A stretch of 51,207 bases of DNA from Candidatus Magasanikbacteria bacterium RIFOXYB2_FULL_38_10 (GTDB lineage Bacteria; Patescibacteriota; Patescibacteriia; Magasanikbacterales; UBA10003): contig MFQT01000009.1 in NCBI GenBank assembly GCA_001783145.1, positions 1 through 51,207 on the forward strand, written 5' to 3'. Positions 29,557-51,207 of the stretch are shown one piece after another. Positions within the stretch are counted from its first letter, which is position 1; the number at the start of each line of letters is the position of its first letter. A model generated the notes under the pieces. The model was not told where the DNA came from. It saw only the letters and a list, made by a program, of their open reading frames with translations, and did no database searches. The position numbers and the translations under genes were made by a program.

Positions 29557-29853
29557 TGCCGAGGGAGAGAATCGGACTCTCGACGCAAGGATTTTCCTTG
29601 TTTTTTTCTTGAATTACTTCAAGGATCGGACTATATCATCACCCCAAAGGGTGTCGGGCGCTTTTTGGAAGATTATTGTTGGGACTCACTTCCTAGTCTC
29701 TACACCTTCCAAGATATTTTAACCCATCTTGGCTTGGCTCGGGATTACCCTCTTACTGGAGGGTTTCCCCGAATTCACCCGATTTTTAATCCCATATTAC
29801 TATAGGATGGACCGAAAATTCAGTCCTTCGCTCTACCACTGAGCTACCTCGGC
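29557..29853 (-). tRNA. tRNA-Phe(GAA) interrupted by a group I intron (exons 29853-29822 and 29596-29557)
   Basis: The joined exons give a 72-nt cloverleaf: GCCGAGG/CCTCGGC acceptor, D arm GCTC-AGTGGTA-GAGC, anticodon arm AAGGA-CTGAAAA-TCCTT, T arm GAGAG-TCCGATT-CTCTC, and A73. CCA is not encoded. Confidence 0.88.
29597..29821 (-). ncRNA. Group I intron (IC3-like), 225 nt, with no internal ORF
   Basis: P1 pairs exon GGACU with intron GGUCC (U.G at the splice site). P10 pairs intron AUUUUC with the 3' exon GAAAAU. The terminal nucleotide is G. R element GUAGAGACUAG and S element GAUAUAGUCC are present. There are GUAA-capped hairpins and a CCGAGCCAAGC...GAAGGUGUAGAGACUAG core. Confidence 0.88.
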
Positions 29854-29863
29854 AAAAAGGTAT

Positions 29864-29939
29864 TGGTGGACCGTAGCGGATTCGAACCGCTGACCTCCAC
29901 ATTGCAAATGTGGCGCTCTACCAACTAAGCTAACGGCCC
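29864..29939 (-). tRNA. tRNA-Cys(GCA), CCA encoded
   Basis: GGGCCGT/ACGGTCC acceptor (one G.U), anticodon arm CCACA-TTTGCAA-TGTGG, and T arm CAGCGG-TTCGAAT-CCGCTA region. Confidence 0.9.
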
Positions 29940-46166: not shown

Positions 46167-49100
46167 TTAGTTTTTTTCTTCTTGTTTCAGAATTTCTTCC
46201 TCCGCACCTTCTTTAACTACATCATATTCAACTTCTTTCTTACCTTCTCTCTTTTTCAACAATTCCACATCTAAACCTAAGCCTTTTAATTCTCTTACTA
46301 GAACATTAAAGGATTCGGGAATAGCCAAGCGAGTGATCGGCTCTCCCTTAATAATAGATTCGTAAGCCTTGGCGCGTCCGGCTACGTCATCGGATTTAAT
46401 GGTCAAAATTTCTTGCAAAGTGGCGGCGGCGCCATAGCCTTCCAAAGCCCACACCTCCATTTCACCAAATCTCTGGCCGCCAAATTGCGCCTTACCGCCA
46501 AGAGGCTGTTGAGTAATTAAAGAATAAGGACCAATGGAGCGTTGATGAATTTTGTCTTCCACCATGTGATTAAGCTTTAACATATAAATATAACCAATGG
46601 TGCTTTGATGATCAAAGGACTCGCCGGTGCGACCGTCATAAAGCTGAGCCTGACCATCGGGATCATAACCGGCTCGTTTTAATTCCTCAGTAATTTTTTC
46701 TTCGGAAATACCGGCTAAAACCGGTGAAGCCACCTTGTATCTGAATTTATTGGCGGCGGAACCTAAAACAGTTTCCATAATCTGTCCCAAATTCATACGG
46801 GAAATAATGCCGAGAGGGCTCAAAATAATGTCCACGGGAGTACCATCGGCTAAAAAAGGCATATCGGCCACTGGCACGATTTTGGAAACAATACCTTTAT
46901 TGCCATGACGGCCCGCCATTTTGTCGCCCACTTGAATTTTTCTCATGTCCGCAATAGAAACTTGAACGGATTTAATAACTCCCGGCGGTAATTTATCGCC
47001 GTTTTCCGCAGAGAAAATTTTAACGTCTACTACTGTGCCGTGTTCGCCGTGCTCCAAATATAAAGAGGAGTCGCGTACATCACGAGCTTTTTCGCCAAAA
47101 ATGGCGCGTAATAATTTTTCTTCAGCGGAAAGTTCGGTTTCACCCTTAGGAGTAATTTTACCAACCAAAATATCACCGGATTTTACTTTGGCGCCAATGC
47201 GAATAATACCTTCGGAATCCAAATTTTTTAATTTTTCCTCACTGACATTGGGAATATCCGAGGTAACCAATTCCGGCCCCAGTTTGGTTTCACGCACATC
47301 CGTAGTGTAATTTTCAATATGAATGGAAGTGAAACGATCTTTTTGTACCAATCTTTCGGAAATAATAATAGCATCTTCAAAATTGTAGCCGTCCCAAATC
47401 ATAAAGGCTACCAAAATATTTTGCCCCAAGGCCAACTCACCATCTTGAGAAATAGCCGGACCATCGGTTAAAATATCACCGGCTTTAACACGCTGTCCGC
47501 GAGTGACTACGGGATGTTGATTAAAGCAAGTAGAGGCATTAGAACGAACAAATTTATTTAATTGGAAAGTACGCAATCCCCCGCCATCTTCTAAAATCTG
47601 AACTTTACCGCCATCCACTTCAGCAATCACGCCATCATTTTCAGCGATAAAAATATGGCCGGAATCCATAGCGGCGCGTTTTTCCATACCTGTACCAACC
47701 AACGGTGCTTCGGGAGCAATACAAGGCACGGCCTGACGCTGCATATTAGTACCCATAAGGGCGCGAACAGAATCATCGTGCTCCAAAAAGGGAATGCAAG
47801 AAGTGGCCACAGAAACAATTTGGTTAGGAGCCACATCTACATAATCTATAGTGGTAACATCTTCAAAACTAGGTTCGCCGTGCTTTCTAACTTCGGCTTT
47901 ATCATGTATAAAATAACCTTCTTTATCGCGTAAAGTGTTAGCGGAAGTGGTAGTGCCTTTTTCTTCCATAAAAGCATTAAGCCAAACAATTTCTTTAGTG
48001 ACGCGTGGTTTTACTTTAACAATTTCTAAATCCAACTTGGCCAAGTCTTTGGCCAAGTCTTTGGTAATTTTTTCATCTTTTTTGCCTACCAGTTTACCTT
48101 TGGCATCTAAAACATCTTCCTGTAATTTCTCGCCTTCAGTTAATTTAGAATCGTTTTTAACTTCCCTTAAAACCTTACGGAATGGGGTCTCCATAAAACC
48201 AAACTGATTAACTTTGGCGTAAGAGGCTAAGTGAGTGACCAGACCAATGTTAGGGCCTTCCGGAGTGGCGATAGGACAAATTCTGCCGTAGTGGGTGGTA
48301 TGCACGTCGCGCACATCAAAACCGGCGCGGTCCCTAGACAAACCGCCAGGACCCATGGCCGACAACCTTCTTTTATGTTCCAATTCGGCAAGTGGATTGG
48401 TTTGATCCATAAACTGAGAAAGTTGGGAGGACATAAAAAACTCGCGGGTGACACCCATTACCGGACGCGCGTTGATCAGTTTATTGGGAGTCAAAGCCCC
48501 CACATCCATAGTACTCATTCTATCTTTGACGATTCTCTCCATTCTGGCCAAACCAACTCTTAAGCGATTTTGTACCAGTTCGCCCACGGCCCTAACGCGA
48601 CGGTTACCCAAATGGTCAATATCATCCGCTTCTTCCTGTGTAATATTTAAATGAATGATTTCTTTAATGATGGTAGCTAAATCTTCTTTGGTTAAAGTGC
48701 GGAACCTTCTGTCGTGAACATCAATTTCTTCTTTAACGGCAAAACGTTGATTAAATTTATAGCGGCCGACAGCGGAAAAATCATAACGATCAAAATTAAA
48801 AAACATGGCGTGAATAAGAGAACGCGCGTTATCAGCGGTAGCCAAATCGCCCGGACGGATCCTTTGATAAATGCCAATAAGACCGGAGTCTTCATCTTTA
48901 GAAGTGTCTTTGGCCAAGGTGTTTTCTATGAATCTAACTTGCGGGTGAGTATCTACATCTTTAAATAATTTTCTAATTTCTTCATCACTGCCAAAACCAA
49001 AAGCGCGGAGCAACATAGTAATAGGGGCTTTGCGCTTTCTATCCACTTTACACCAAATTACATTGTTGGAATCGGTTTCAATTTCCACCCAAGCGCCGCG

Positions 49101-49586
49101 GTTGGGAATAATTTTGGCACCGTAATAACGATGGCCGCGAAAAATTTCTGAAGTAAAAAAAACACCGGCAGAACGGATAAGCTGGGAAACCACCGCGCGT
49201 TCAATACCGTTAATAATAAAGGTGCCGGTTTTGGTCATGACGGGAAAATCACCCATAAAAACTTCCTGCTCTTTGCTTTCACCTGTCCTTTTGTTAGTTA
49301 AGCGCGCCTTAACACGCAAGGCCGCTTCATAAGTAATGTTGCGGTTGCGGCAAATAATTTCATCAAATTTGGGTGCATCCAGATAGTATTCACCAAAATA
49401 TAATTCCAAATCGCGATTGGTAAAATCTTGAATTGGAGAGACCTCGTCAAAAAGTTCCCTCACGCCTGTTTTTAAAAACCAATCATAAGAATCTTTTTGT
49501 ACGGAAATGAGATTGGGCAAATCCATTACTTCTTCTTGTTCTCTTAAATGAATTCTGGGTTTTAAAATATTGGTGGAGGAAGACAT
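46167..49586 (-). CDS. rpoB: DNA-directed RNA polymerase beta subunit
   Basis: Conserved beta blocks GRHGNKG, GGQRFGEMEVWALE and PNLISVQKDSYDWF. I prefer the ATG at 49586. The ORF-track start at 49700 is a TTG and would place 38 atypical residues over a leader hairpin. Confidence 0.96.
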   Translation of the reverse strand: MSSSTNILKPRIHLREQEEVMDLPNLISVQKDSYDWFLKTGVRELFDEVSPIQDFTNRDLELYFGEYYLDAPKFDEIICRNRNITYEAALRVKARLTNKRTGESKEQEVFMGDFPVMTKTGTFIINGIERAVVSQLIRSAGVFFTSEIFRGHRYYGAKIIPNRGAWVEIETDSNNVIWCKVDRKRKAPITMLLRAFGFGSDEEIRKLFKDVDTHPQVRFIENTLAKDTSKDEDSGLIGIYQRIRPGDLATADNARSLIHAMFFNFDRYDFSAVGRYKFNQRFAVKEEIDVHDRRFRTLTKEDLATIIKEIIHLNITQEEADDIDHLGNRRVRAVGELVQNRLRVGLARMERIVKDRMSTMDVGALTPNKLINARPVMGVTREFFMSSQLSQFMDQTNPLAELEHKRRLSAMGPGGLSRDRAGFDVRDVHTTHYGRICPIATPEGPNIGLVTHLASYAKVNQFGFMETPFRKVLREVKNDSKLTEGEKLQEDVLDAKGKLVGKKDEKITKDLAKDLAKLDLEIVKVKPRVTKEIVWLNAFMEEKGTTTSANTLRDKEGYFIHDKAEVRKHGEPSFEDVTTIDYVDVAPNQIVSVATSCIPFLEHDDSVRALMGTNMQRQAVPCIAPEAPLVGTGMEKRAAMDSGHIFIAENDGVIAEVDGGKVQILEDGGGLRTFQLNKFVRSNASTCFNQHPVVTRGQRVKAGDILTDGPAISQDGELALGQNILVAFMIWDGYNFEDAIIISERLVQKDRFTSIHIENYTTDVRETKLGPELVTSDIPNVSEEKLKNLDSEGIIRIGAKVKSGDILVGKITPKGETELSAEEKLLRAIFGEKARDVRDSSLYLEHGEHGTVVDVKIFSAENGDKLPPGVIKSVQVSIADMRKIQVGDKMAGRHGNKGIVSKIVPVADMPFLADGTPVDIILSPLGIISRMNLGQIMETVLGSAANKFRYKVASPVLAGISEEKITEELKRAGYDPDGQAQLYDGRTGESFDHQSTIGYIYMLKLNHMVEDKIHQRSIGPYSLITQQPLGGKAQFGGQRFGEMEVWALEGYGAAATLQEILTIKSDDVAGRAKAYESIIKGEPITRLAIPESFNVLVRELKGLGLDVELLKKREGKKEVEYDVVKEGAEEEILKQEEKN

Positions 49587-49701
49587 AATTTTTTTATACT
49601 TAGTTTTTAATTTTTTATAAAATAATTTTGTAATTGGAAAACCCACAGCCTTAAATACTCTTATATCCGGTTTAATTTTATCCTTATATACTACACTCAA
49701 A

Positions 49702-49738
49702 GCAGAAACAAAAACTCTCCAGATTCATTTTTCTGGAG
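49702..49738 (-). terminator. Attenuator-like hairpin in the rpoB leader
   Basis: Minus strand reads CTCCAGA-aaaatgaa-TCTGGAG followed by AGTTTTTGTTT, about 115 nt upstream of the rpoB ATG. Confidence 0.45.
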
Positions 49739-49858
49739 TTGTACAAACCTCTATTGATTGTTTTTTGAGAAAATTGCAAGGGAAATCATGTAAATGTTCC
49801 TTGCGAACAGCCCCTTTCCCCGTTATTCGGGGCTTAGGTCCATTCAAAGATTGAATAG

Positions 49859-49887
49859 AGTGTACAGCAAAAAAAAACTTTTGTCAA
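49859..49887 (-). promoter_or_regulatory. Candidate sigma70-type promoter for rpoBC
   Basis: Minus strand reads TTGACA, 17-nt spacer, TACACT. Confidence 0.45.
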
Positions 49888-49986
49888 ATCTTTTTATTTA
49901 ACTTTGTCAAGATTTATTTTTTAGCTTAAATTAGCCTAAAAAAATAGATTGTTAATAAAAGTGTCCACCAAAAGTGACTAAAGGTC

Positions 49987-50015
49987 TTGACAACTGTGGA
50001 AAAATGTGCTATACT
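49987..50015 (+). promoter_or_regulatory. Near-consensus sigma70 promoter with no ORF downstream
   Basis: TTGACA-ACTGTGGAAAAATGTGC(17)-TATACT. Confidence 0.7.
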
Positions 50016-50082
50016 AATATGTTCTGAAGATGAAGAAGCCAAAACAAGTTCATTAAAACGCTAAAATAAGCCAAAAATCCTT

Positions 50083-50470
50083 AAAATTAAGGAGGGGAAA
50101 GATAACCGATTAAGTAGCCAAGGAGGGCGAGGTAATCGGCGGGATGAAAATAGGGCAATATAGCGAGGTGAATAACTTCGCTTGCCTCTAGGTTCATTCC
50201 TTTTCCAGAACACTCTCTATTTATTTAGAGAAAAAACTGGATCATCTATCCTCTTTAATTTTGAGGGTTTTGCATTATTTTTTGCCAAGTTCTCCAAAAT
50301 TAAGGAGGGGTAGATAAACGACTAAACAAGCCAACAGGCCCAAGATTAGTTGCCGGATTTTTTTTAGGCCAGGGGGGTCAAGACTTCGCTTGAACCTAAA
50401 AAATGTCCATTCCTGGATGACTTCCTGCTTGCAGGAATGCGTACCAGACCTTCTATCCTCCTAAATTTTG
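50083..50470 (+). repeat. Tandem duplication: unit A 50083-50263 and unit B 50296-50470 (213-nt period)
   Basis: Shared elements are 5' AAAATTAAGGAGGGG-AGATAA, AGCCAA, the identical 10-mer ACTTCGCTTG (50175 and 50383), CATTCC, and 3' TCTATCCTC-T-AATTTTG. Confidence 0.75.
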
Positions 50471-50484
50471 CAGATCTTACCTCA

Positions 50485-50526
50485 AAAAGCCGGCCCTTAT
50501 TTTTATATGGGTCGGCTTTTGTTTTC
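50485..50526 (+). terminator. Intrinsic terminator of the tandem-domain RNA
   Basis: GCCGGCCC-ttatttttatat-GGGTCGGC (one G.U) followed by TTTTGTTTTC. Confidence 0.6.
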
Positions 50527-50561
50527 AAAAAAATTTCCCTCTTCGTCACTAGAAATCCATC

Positions 50562-50590
50562 TTGAAAATTTGCTGATTTTACTTTATAAT
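50562..50590 (+). promoter_or_regulatory. Second near-consensus sigma70 promoter with no ORF downstream
   Basis: TTGAAA, 17-nt spacer, TATAAT. Confidence 0.65.
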
Positions 50591-50596
50591 AAACTC

Positions 50597-50822
50597 TAGC
50601 CCTTAATAAATTTGTCTTGGGAATCAAGGGGCTGCGGGCAAGCTTCACAAAAACAAATAGGAGTTAGGTCATTAACTTAACTTCCCGCAATAAGGGGGAA
50701 GCGAAGTTCCACTAAATTTTCAACGAAATTTAGTGAGACCAAAAAACCACTGTTTGAAAAAAGTGGGGGCGCTGTTCGCAGCCTCTTGAATCACAAAAAA
50801 TCCCCTTTAAAGGGGATTTTTA
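50597..50822 (+). ncRNA. Candidate ~230-nt structured RNA of unknown class
   Basis: A closing helix GGGGCTGCG (50628-50636) / CGCAGCCTC (50777-50785) encloses several hairpins, including a perfect 10-bp stem at 50710-50735. It ends at the bidirectional terminator. Confidence 0.45.
50795..50822. terminator. Bidirectional terminator
   Basis: AAAAAATCCCCTTTAAAGGGGATTTTT. Confidence 0.7.
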
Positions 50823-51207
50823 ATTTGTGGCCGTTTCACCGGTATCAGGACTTGGAGCTGACAAAGGCGCAGATTCTGCGGGAGGATCTTTTGCGGTGGG
50901 CGGCGAAGTTTCCGCCACAGGTGTTTGTTCCACAGGTATTGGCGCGGGAGAATTGGAATTTTCATTGGCAACCAAAGGCTCAGTTGGCGGAGAAGTCTCT
51001 TGATTATCAGCAGAATCAGCCGAAGGATTGTTGTCCGCATTCGTAGAATTATTTTCATTGCCCAAAGGAGCGGTATTTTCTCCGTCGATTGTTTCTTCCG
51101 CAGAAGACAAAGGATCATTGCCCACCGGATCCGTTGAAGAATTATTAGCGGCATCTGGTGAATCCTGAGCGGTAGATCCGCTGTTAGTCTGACCGGAGGC
51201 GCTCGTA
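50820..51207 (-). CDS. C-terminal end of a protein with a low-complexity Pro/Ser/Asn/Glu-rich tail; 5' end lies off the window
   Basis: The reading frame is open from the right edge (TSASGQTNSGSTAQDSPDAANNSSTDPVGNDPLSS...) to the TAA at 50822-50820, which abuts a terminator. The ORF-track M at 51125 is a GTG inside this frame. Confidence 0.5.
   Translation of the reverse strand, partial: TSASGQTNSGSTAQDSPDAANNSSTDPVGNDPLSSAEETIDGENTAPLGNENNSTNADNNPSADSADNQETSPPTEPLVANENSNSPAPIPVEQTPVAETSPPTAKDPPAESAPLSAPSPDTGETATN

Follow-up and report, generated by a model that had tools for sequence, protein, structure and literature searches.

CPR bacteria represent much of bacterial diversity, and have tiny genomes with few recognisable regulators. 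In the 51,207-nucleotide stretch of Magasanikbacteria DNA analysed here (the window), 1.23 kb without a credible ORF lie between the rpoB start codon and the point, at 50820, where the neighbouring gene has its stop codon, which raises the question of what this region of a compact genome encodes. An earlier note on this DNA had proposed that a promoter-to-terminator unit next to rpoB specifies an ORF-less RNA made of two paralogous structured domains. We report here that orthologous copies of this RNA exist in relatives, that each copy folded is predicted to adopt the same fold, that the helices covary and that no Rfam family matches, results which together support the core of that proposal. 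Judging from the sequences, the locus is very probably a genuine structured non-coding RNA gene of a new family.

An ORF-less transcription unit next to rpoB

The rpoB gene of the window (46167–49586, minus strand) has an identical copy on NCBI contig LBYK01000002.1 (GCA_000996105.1) and further ones on several metagenome contigs from groundwater, and the closest GTDB species representatives are ~70% identical over the rpoB N-terminus. In the sequence collection rpoB is called as 1177 aa with a TTG start; the window has an ATG at 49586. The gene beyond the RNA is read from the minus strand and encodes a large LVIVD-repeat protein. From 17.5 to 42 kb, twenty ORFs proved to be ordinary genes, some of them serving metal transport, the synthesis of polysaccharides or the repair of DNA, and with rpoC and rpoB they fill most of the window as far as 49.6 kb.

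The near-consensus promoter and the intrinsic terminator which the earlier note had placed around about 505 nt without a credible ORF were both recovered (Table 1). The arms of the terminator hairpin pair 50485–50500 with 50505–50520, and this hairpin, absent from the output of a simple terminator scan, was found by both the inverted-repeat scan and the fold. Within the transcript the longest ORFs measure 43 aa (plus strand) and 50 aa (minus strand), and a 94-aa minus-strand ORF (50364–50648) overlaps unit B and extends beyond the terminator. None of the window's ORFs in or overlapping the RNA gene had a Pfam match at E ≤ 1. A search for a conserved ORF among the homologues described below found none, as the longest ORF of each homologue ranges from 20 to 68 aa (20 aa in L094, 25 aa in L092) and varies in frame and strand. 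A coding gene, whether small or degraded, the latter having been raised in the earlier note as an opposing explanation, was rejected on these grounds. The RNA gene is presumably transcribed, and we expect high expression and an abundant RNA from a near-consensus promoter with an extended −10 element.

Table 1 Features of the rpoB-linked RNA locus (window coordinates unless a lineage is named; L numbers denote relatives from the rpoB search).
Feature	Position	Strand	Details
rpoB 5' leader	49587 to ~49855	−	~270 nt; separate conserved element with attenuator-like terminator
Inter-promoter region	49880–49943		between divergent rpoB and RNA promoters; two TTTGTCAA repeats and palindrome TAGCTTAAATTAGCCTA
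RNA1 promoter	49987–50015	+	TTGACA-17-TATACT, TG-n extended −10; 11/12 consensus positions
RNA1 5' leader (inferred)	50022–50075	+	~55 nt; start site inferred from −10 box
Unit A	50076–50269	+	P1 50076–50103/50244–50269; P2 50106–50139; P3 50141–50200; P4 50204–50241 (MFE of unit alone)
Unit B	50291–50475	+	P1 50291–50314/50452–50474; P2 50319–50352; P3 50355–50408; P4 50413–50447 (MFE; architecture as unit A)
Conserved AAGGAGGGG, inner P1 5' strand	50089–50097 (unit A), 50302–50310 (unit B)	+	constant in 7/8 sequences
RNA1 intrinsic terminator	50485–50530	+	GC-rich hairpin 50485–50520 (inverted repeat I9, MFE fold), then UUUUGUUUUC
RNA2, ORF-less	50562–50825	+	own promoter, conserved closing stem, bidirectional terminator; just downstream of RNA1
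RNA2 homologues	L092:~4345–4165, L094:~4345–4170, L096:~3535–3355, L115:~228–55	−	conserved

Two homologous units share a four-way junction fold

The two units of the transcript are homologous, as had been proposed (nhmmer E = 1.3e-7 between them), and a three-block pattern fits both units and 0 of 100 shuffles. The repeat scan recovered two direct-repeat blocks at each unit end, the shared 10-mer and the closing-helix inverted repeats. The closing helix (P1) is present as claimed and slightly longer, which extends the units to the limits given in Table 1, and the second helix (50106–12 with 50133–39 in unit A, 50319–25 with 50346–52 in unit B) is there too, with its compensatory changes. Between units A and B alone, 11 predicted pairs are changed on both sides with pairing kept.

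Folding of 509 nt of the plus strand gave −188 kcal/mol (z = −10.8, compared with z = −6.2 for the minus strand). In the predicted structure, P1 (20–25 pairs) closes a four-way junction from which three further elements emerge: P2 (34–36 nt), whose 8-bp stem is followed by a conserved AAxUA/GAGG internal loop and then by a small apical stem; P3 (54–60 nt), which is long and variable; and P4 (33–44 nt), which is shorter than P3. The four-way junction was obtained in all seven of the sequences folded one at a time.

The natural unit is a single domain of ~190 nt, of which the relatives hold one, while the window genome carries two diverged units head to tail within one promoter-to-terminator unit. 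The idea of an RNA made of two paralogous structured domains therefore holds for the window, and the two-domain transcript is particular to this genome. Unit A scored 204 and 210 bits with our covariance models, and unit B 154 bits (model R1) and 95 bits (model R2); E-values from these models, which were built in this analysis, are rough. The closest sequence to unit A is the copy in lineage L089 (nhmmer E = 8e-23, 80 bits), of which it is clearly the orthologue by sequence. Unit B is about equidistant from unit A, L089 and L094 (28–36 bits, nhmmer), and shares with L094 an identical stretch of 24 nt in the P1 5' strand. The tandem may have arisen either by an old duplication followed by differential loss, or with a unit B that is fast-evolving or was acquired from a relative.

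The identical 10-mer ACUUCGCUUG, which the earlier note had singled out, does occur in both units and exactly twice in the window, as the 3' strand of the P3 apical stem. Its counterpart reads ACUUCGCCUG in L089 and begins ACUCAA in L092 and L094, so that in sequence the 10-mer is a lineage-specific element common only to the closest relative and not a feature of the family.

Single-unit orthologues lie at the same place in six other lineages

Relatives were taken as a graded series from an rpoB protein search, and their contigs were examined. Exactly one homologous unit was found at the locus in each of six lineages, whose rpoB identity to the window is 83% (L089), 82% (L092), 80% (L094) and 75% (L108/L109 and L115). 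The L115 copy was found by model R2, built without L115, with 135 bits and 2 of 58 pairs flagged as non-canonical. In all seven lineages, the window included, the RNA gene is divergent from rpoB, so that it and the rpoBC promoter stand back to back. On the far flank, each lineage has a different gene (an LVIVD protein, a DUF234 ATPase, FtsK, a RecA region, CutA1 and others), so that only the linkage to rpoB is conserved. Transcription of this next gene converges on the RNA in the window, L089 and L094, and unrelated genes follow in L092, L108 and L109, in line with the earlier observation that there is no downstream gene for the RNA to control. The small ORFs beside the RNA in L094, L096 and L108 were considered as a conserved partner protein and rejected, being unrelated by eye.

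Every relative with the RNA (L089, L092, L094, L108, L109 and L115) has the promoter block TTGACANCTGTGGAAAA at the equivalent place, and the consensus across carriers is TTGACAaCTGTGGAAAAnnnTGnTATAMT. Each copy ends either in its own terminator, as in L089, L108 and L109, which have hairpin terminators at the equivalent place, or in P1 and a U-run, as in L092, L094 and L115, where the U-run lies directly 3' of P1. Between the divergent promoters, the palindrome (49921–49937, inside an inverted repeat at 49917–49943) and the TTTGTCAA repeats are kept in L089, L092, L094 and L115. The RNA leader, too, has such a GCU..AAU..AGC element, ~40 nt from its start, and contains a small GCU..AGC hairpin element at ~50059–50072; the leaders of the relatives are of similar length and hold an AGCUxAAUxxAGCU-type hairpin that resembles the palindrome TAGCTTAAATTAGCCTA. 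The inter-promoter palindrome and its leader copy look like an operator pair.

The RNA is absent from L096 (rpoB 78%) and from L110 and L111 (74%), and neither nhmmer nor models R1 and R2 found it at 34 further CPR (GTDB) rpoB loci with rpoB N-terminus identities of 71% or less. A search of the viral (IMG/VR) and JGI metagenome collections with the pattern AAGGAGG..CTTCGCTTG..CTATCCTC, which relied on the lineage-specific 10-mer, returned nothing. A looser pattern gave 11 metagenome loci, of which three were genuine, all on previously known contigs, and eight were chance matches; a slightly looser pattern still was empty in the viral collection, and these scans thus added no members. Taken together, the carriers and the absences indicate a family that is real, yet narrow and patchy, and its absence from L096, L110 and the 34 further loci marks it, on this sampling, as dispensable.

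In L096 (4290–4740, minus strand) the RNA promoter is kept (TTGACAAATGTGGATAAGTGTGCTATACT), but what it drives, instead of the RNA, is a GC-rich leader with a true AAGGAGG ribosome-binding site, followed by the GC-rich gene of a membrane protein of 84 aa. The P0010 and P0013 contigs end ~300–400 nt upstream of rpoB and carry no information on the presence of the RNA. The independent contigs of L112, L113 and L114 break at position 1, 300–400 nt upstream of rpoB and near the expected RNA genes, which may reflect an assembly problem in the region.

Covariation supports the fold and leaves parts of it constant

Covariation was assessed in two alignments. In the first (A7; eight sequences from seven metagenomic lineages), which was fitted to the model and is therefore biased towards the model's structure, 88% of cells are paired over 58 pairs and eight sequences. 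Double changes occur in 36 of the 58 pairs, compared with 20.1 ± 2.7 in shuffles, of which 0 of 500 reach the observed value, and with 7–15 for slid partners. The second (A4) is a plain MAFFT alignment restricted to well-aligned helices, in which 91% of cells are paired (31 pairs) and 15 of 31 pairs show double changes (shuffles 7.3 ± 1.8, 0 of 500; slid partners 1–5). Only eight sequences are known, all of them from metagenome assemblies, and the statistical power is accordingly modest. Compensatory changes are seen in every helix (A7), and in the main P2 stem 6 of 7 pairs are altered on both sides with standard pairing never lost. Two of the checks which the earlier note had suggested for its reading, homologues in relatives and covariation among them, came out in its favour. 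The G-U pairs, together with the orientation of promoter and terminator, fix the plus strand as the RNA strand.

Some parts are held constant instead. The inner P1 5' strand reads AAGGAGGG in seven of the eight sequences (AAGGAAGGA in L089), while its 3' partner drifts between C and U (pair counts GC:5 GU:3; GC:7 GU:1; GU:6 AU:1 GC:1), which points to a sequence-specific role of this strand beyond pairing. At the junction, six of the eight sequences keep a UAGA/UCUA step, which is GAGA/UCUC in L108 and L109, and in the P2 internal loop seven of the eight keep the GAGG side.

The Shine-Dalgarno-like strand is probably not a masked ribosome-binding site

An SD-like AAGGAGG sequestered in the closing helix, with no start codon after it, was part of the earlier description. 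The motif does lie in the closing helix and no consistent start codon follows it; a micro-ORF after AAGGAGG was rejected since start codon and frame are inconsistent. Its reading as an SD is doubtful, given that the clade hardly uses such sites. The 51-kb window has six AAGGAGG, of which three fall within the RNA locus and none lies ahead of an ORF; AGGAGG precedes an ORF in one of 13 cases, and of 23 gene starts called in the window and relatives a single one has an SD (calls of L081, L089, L092, L094, L108 and L110). Both rpoB and rpoC lack one, and genes of the clade start after A/U-rich stretches. Because the clade nearly never uses SD sites, the P1 motif would not be a disused masked ribosome-binding site and is presumably kept for another reason, for which protein contact, a tertiary role beside the junction and the 16S anti-SD tail are candidates. 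A second AAGGAGGG is present in the P2 apical loop of unit A and L089, or at the P3 apex of L108 and L109. The 3' strand in L108 and L109 reads CACCUCCU, which is identical to the canonical anti-SD.

The RNA matches no known family

Scanning the whole window with Rfam 15 (4227 covariance models) at gathering thresholds returned only four tRNAs and one group I intron, and the RNA gene had no match, as the earlier note had anticipated in finding no family for it. The intron lies at 29607–29939 (minus strand, 93.7 bits), 36 nt from the tRNA gene at 29867–29939. A permissive Rfam search (E ≤ 10) of 49550–50900, L094:4100–4700 and L108:3000–4000 yielded sub-threshold noise or nothing, the best match over the RNA gene being mir-19 with 26.5 bits against a cut-off of 50. 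Neither 6S (RF00013), Y RNA, SRP, RNase P nor tmRNA was matched even at E ≤ 10, and ARAGORN reported no tRNA-like element in the RNA gene. A likeness of the P2 and junction of L108 to 16S h45 with the 3' tail was rejected because it fails in the other members, in which that strand covaries. Our search of the literature on non-coding RNAs of CPR or Magasanikbacteria gave nothing relevant, and we found almost nothing published.

Among known systems, the raiA motif, OLE, ROOL and HEARO are likewise self-contained genes with their own promoter and terminator that are not cis-regulatory, and orphans of the raiA motif type share with our RNA a size of ~200 nt, a multi-helix junction, well-supported covariation and a function that is not assigned. 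Compared with these, the RNA described here has no sequence or model similarity and a different fold, is confined to one CPR sub-clade, is linked to rpoB and occurs in tandem. The Lacto-rpoB and Rhodo-rpoB motifs, which Rfam has as candidate cis-regulators, are also structured RNAs tied to the region upstream of rpoB, but they are rpoB 5' UTRs on the rpoB strand, whereas this RNA is transcribed away from rpoB and terminated, and neither model matches it.

What the RNA may do

The best explanation overall, and one that we consider somewhat more likely than not, is that a stand-alone gene founds a new family of structured non-coding RNA which acts in trans as a binding platform; the platform mechanism, taken by itself, is tentative. 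We found no partner protein, ligand or target and the neighbours are not conserved, so that the mechanism is drawn from the anatomy of the RNA only. According to this proposal, the RNA would act in trans as a scaffold or decoy platform for a protein or the ribosome. The long P1 would protect the RNA ends or serve as an RNase III-type processing stem, and the working surface would be formed by the parts that do not covary, namely the AAGGAGGG/UAGA strand where inner P1 meets the junction, together with the internal loop of P2, with P3 and P4 as structural spacers. A tandem copy would double the dose or provide a covalently linked two-domain version. We loosely favour a platform for a protein or the ribosome, the clue being that P1 keeps its AAGGAGGG strand in a clade with hardly any SD sites.

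The linkage to the rpoBC promoter, kept in seven lineages while the other flank varies, could itself reflect function, the RNA being a diverged housekeeping or RNA-polymerase-associated RNA, either 6S-like or Ms1-like and sequestering RNA polymerase, or a Y-RNA-like module. Its strong promoter and a long closing helix, typical of stable RNAs, agree with this, and the recurrence of the inter-promoter palindrome in the RNA leader suggests co-regulation; the back-to-back arrangement with rpoBC and this recurrence thus leave room for an RNA-polymerase-related role. However, the searches for 6S, Y RNA, SRP, RNase P and tmRNA and the ARAGORN run were empty, and 6S RNA was rejected since all seven folds show a four-way junction and not a rod with a large central bubble that mimics an open promoter. 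A Y RNA, which in the YrlA type is encoded next to rsr (Ro60/TROVE) and has a tRNA-like module with a T-loop, was likewise rejected, there being no TROVE/Rsr gene among the neighbours or the scanned window genes (beyond the first 17 kb). The absence of the RNA from the L096 and L110 loci would be odd for a housekeeping RNA, although it could sit elsewhere in those genomes, and on balance we regard this explanation as unlikely. The likeness to 6S, Ms1 and Y RNA consists of a long 5'/3' terminal helix, probable high expression, a proposed role in trans and the RNA polymerase gene neighbourhood; the rod with a central bubble, an rsr gene (in the scanned window parts) and a model match are missing here. 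The constant strand could instead be directed at the ribosome, with AAGGAGGG or the SD:anti-SD-like helix binding or mimicking the 16S 3' tail and modulating the 30S subunit in a lineage that has given up initiation from SD sites. That AAGGAGGG stays constant while its partner drifts, that it occurs a second time in an apical loop or apex, that genes of the clade lack SD sites (0/6, 1/13 and 1/23 in the three counts above) and that L108 and L109 carry the CACCUCCU strand all speak for such a role. Nevertheless, the P1 motif is embedded in a very stable helix, inaccessible without unwinding or cleavage, and in an AT-rich genome structure alone would also make one expect the inner helix beside a junction to be G-rich, and we consider this explanation improbable. 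We give as little credence to a variant that joins the two ideas, in which the RNA would be a dedicated regulator of the 30S subunit, or of a protein reading SD:anti-SD helices, co-regulated with RNA polymerase through the shared divergent control region, the tandem form being two-headed.

Two further explanations were considered. The four-way junction, with its conserved nucleotides, looks like an aptamer, glycine riboswitches have tandem homologous domains, and in L092, L094 and L115 P1 and a U-run are followed by RNA2, all of which would suit a tandem riboswitch or leader whose P1, serving as terminator stem in some relatives, controls read-through into downstream sequence. But no downstream feature is conserved, the genes there being convergent or unrelated and never the same; strong separate terminators follow the RNA in the window, L089, L108 and L109; RNA2 has its own promoter; no anti-terminator competing with P1 and the U-run was identified in L092, L094 and L115; and no riboswitch family matches. 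A cis-regulatory leader was rejected for these reasons and is in our view very unlikely. The tandem glycine riboswitch also has two homologous junction-type domains per transcript, but these are three-way junctions, whereas the RNA described here is four-way, lacks a regulated gene, an expression platform and a model match, and has single-domain relatives. That the RNA itself is unimportant, the locus being a repeat element (a MITE bounded by terminal inverted repeats), a degenerate gene, the template of a retron or DGR, or just a strong divergent promoter that aids rpoBC by supercoiling, we consider highly improbable. The P1 halves do form inverted repeats around ~150 nt, the unit is tandemly duplicated, L096 keeps the promoter without the RNA, and a closing helix around internal hairpins, at a similar size, is shared with retron msr-msd RNA. 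Yet covariance models, nhmmer and blastn found only the two tandem units in the 51-kb window and one copy per relative locus, with no further copy in any relative's flanks, and a MITE or dispersed repeat was rejected. A retron or DGR was rejected as well, since the called genes beside the seven loci, and those from 17.5 to 42 kb of the window, include neither a reverse transcriptase nor a transposase, and the window has no VR-like near-identical second repeat. The orthologous position across lineages, the compensatory changes in every helix and the lack of a conserved ORF also count against an unimportant RNA.

As a well-folded RNA gene with a strong promoter, kept beside the RNA polymerase operon in several lineages, it is a concrete candidate, open to testing, for a regulator of the core expression machinery that is specific to its lineage, and the size of its ~190-nt domain and of the natural two-domain form suits direct structure determination. 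Were AAGGAGGG to address the ribosome, it would show what purpose the anti-SD tail serves in bacteria that have ceased to use SD sites. Were the RNA an ordinary lineage-specific sRNA, it would still add a family to Rfam and account for a 1.2-kb 'empty' region in a compact genome.

A second RNA gene and the rpoB leader

RNA2 (Table 1) has a promoter of the form TTGAAA-17-TATAAT (50562–50590), a closing stem, AAAAAGYUGCGRG / CYCGCAGCUUUUU, that pairs 50617–36 with 50777–96, and a bidirectional terminator at 50796–50821. It folds with z = −8.0 and matches no Rfam family. Five lineages have it, among them L096, which is without RNA1, and it was not found in the examined flanks of L089, L108 and L109. 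Pairing between RNA1 and RNA2 through a 16-nt complementarity (50174–50189 with 50693–50708) was rejected, as a 10-nt perfect run appears in 8 of 200 shuffles and the complementarity is not conserved in L092 and L094. Pairing with the rpoB leader, proposed from a 24-nt similarity (49657–49680), was rejected because this is absent from L089, whose leader is much shorter.

The rpoB leader contains a conserved GCAAGG..CCUUGC hairpin, also present in relatives, and a terminator-like hairpin with a U-run (49738–49717), conserved in relatives and far upstream of the start codon. The distance from this terminator-like hairpin to the start codon is ~130 nt in the window and only ~35 nt in L089. The conservation of the leader hairpins in relatives suggests that rpoBC is controlled by attenuation. 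The leader motif CUGUU(C/G)GCA(A/G)GG is closely similar to the 3' strand of the RNA2 closing stem, CUGYYCGCAGC (repeats I7 and I19).
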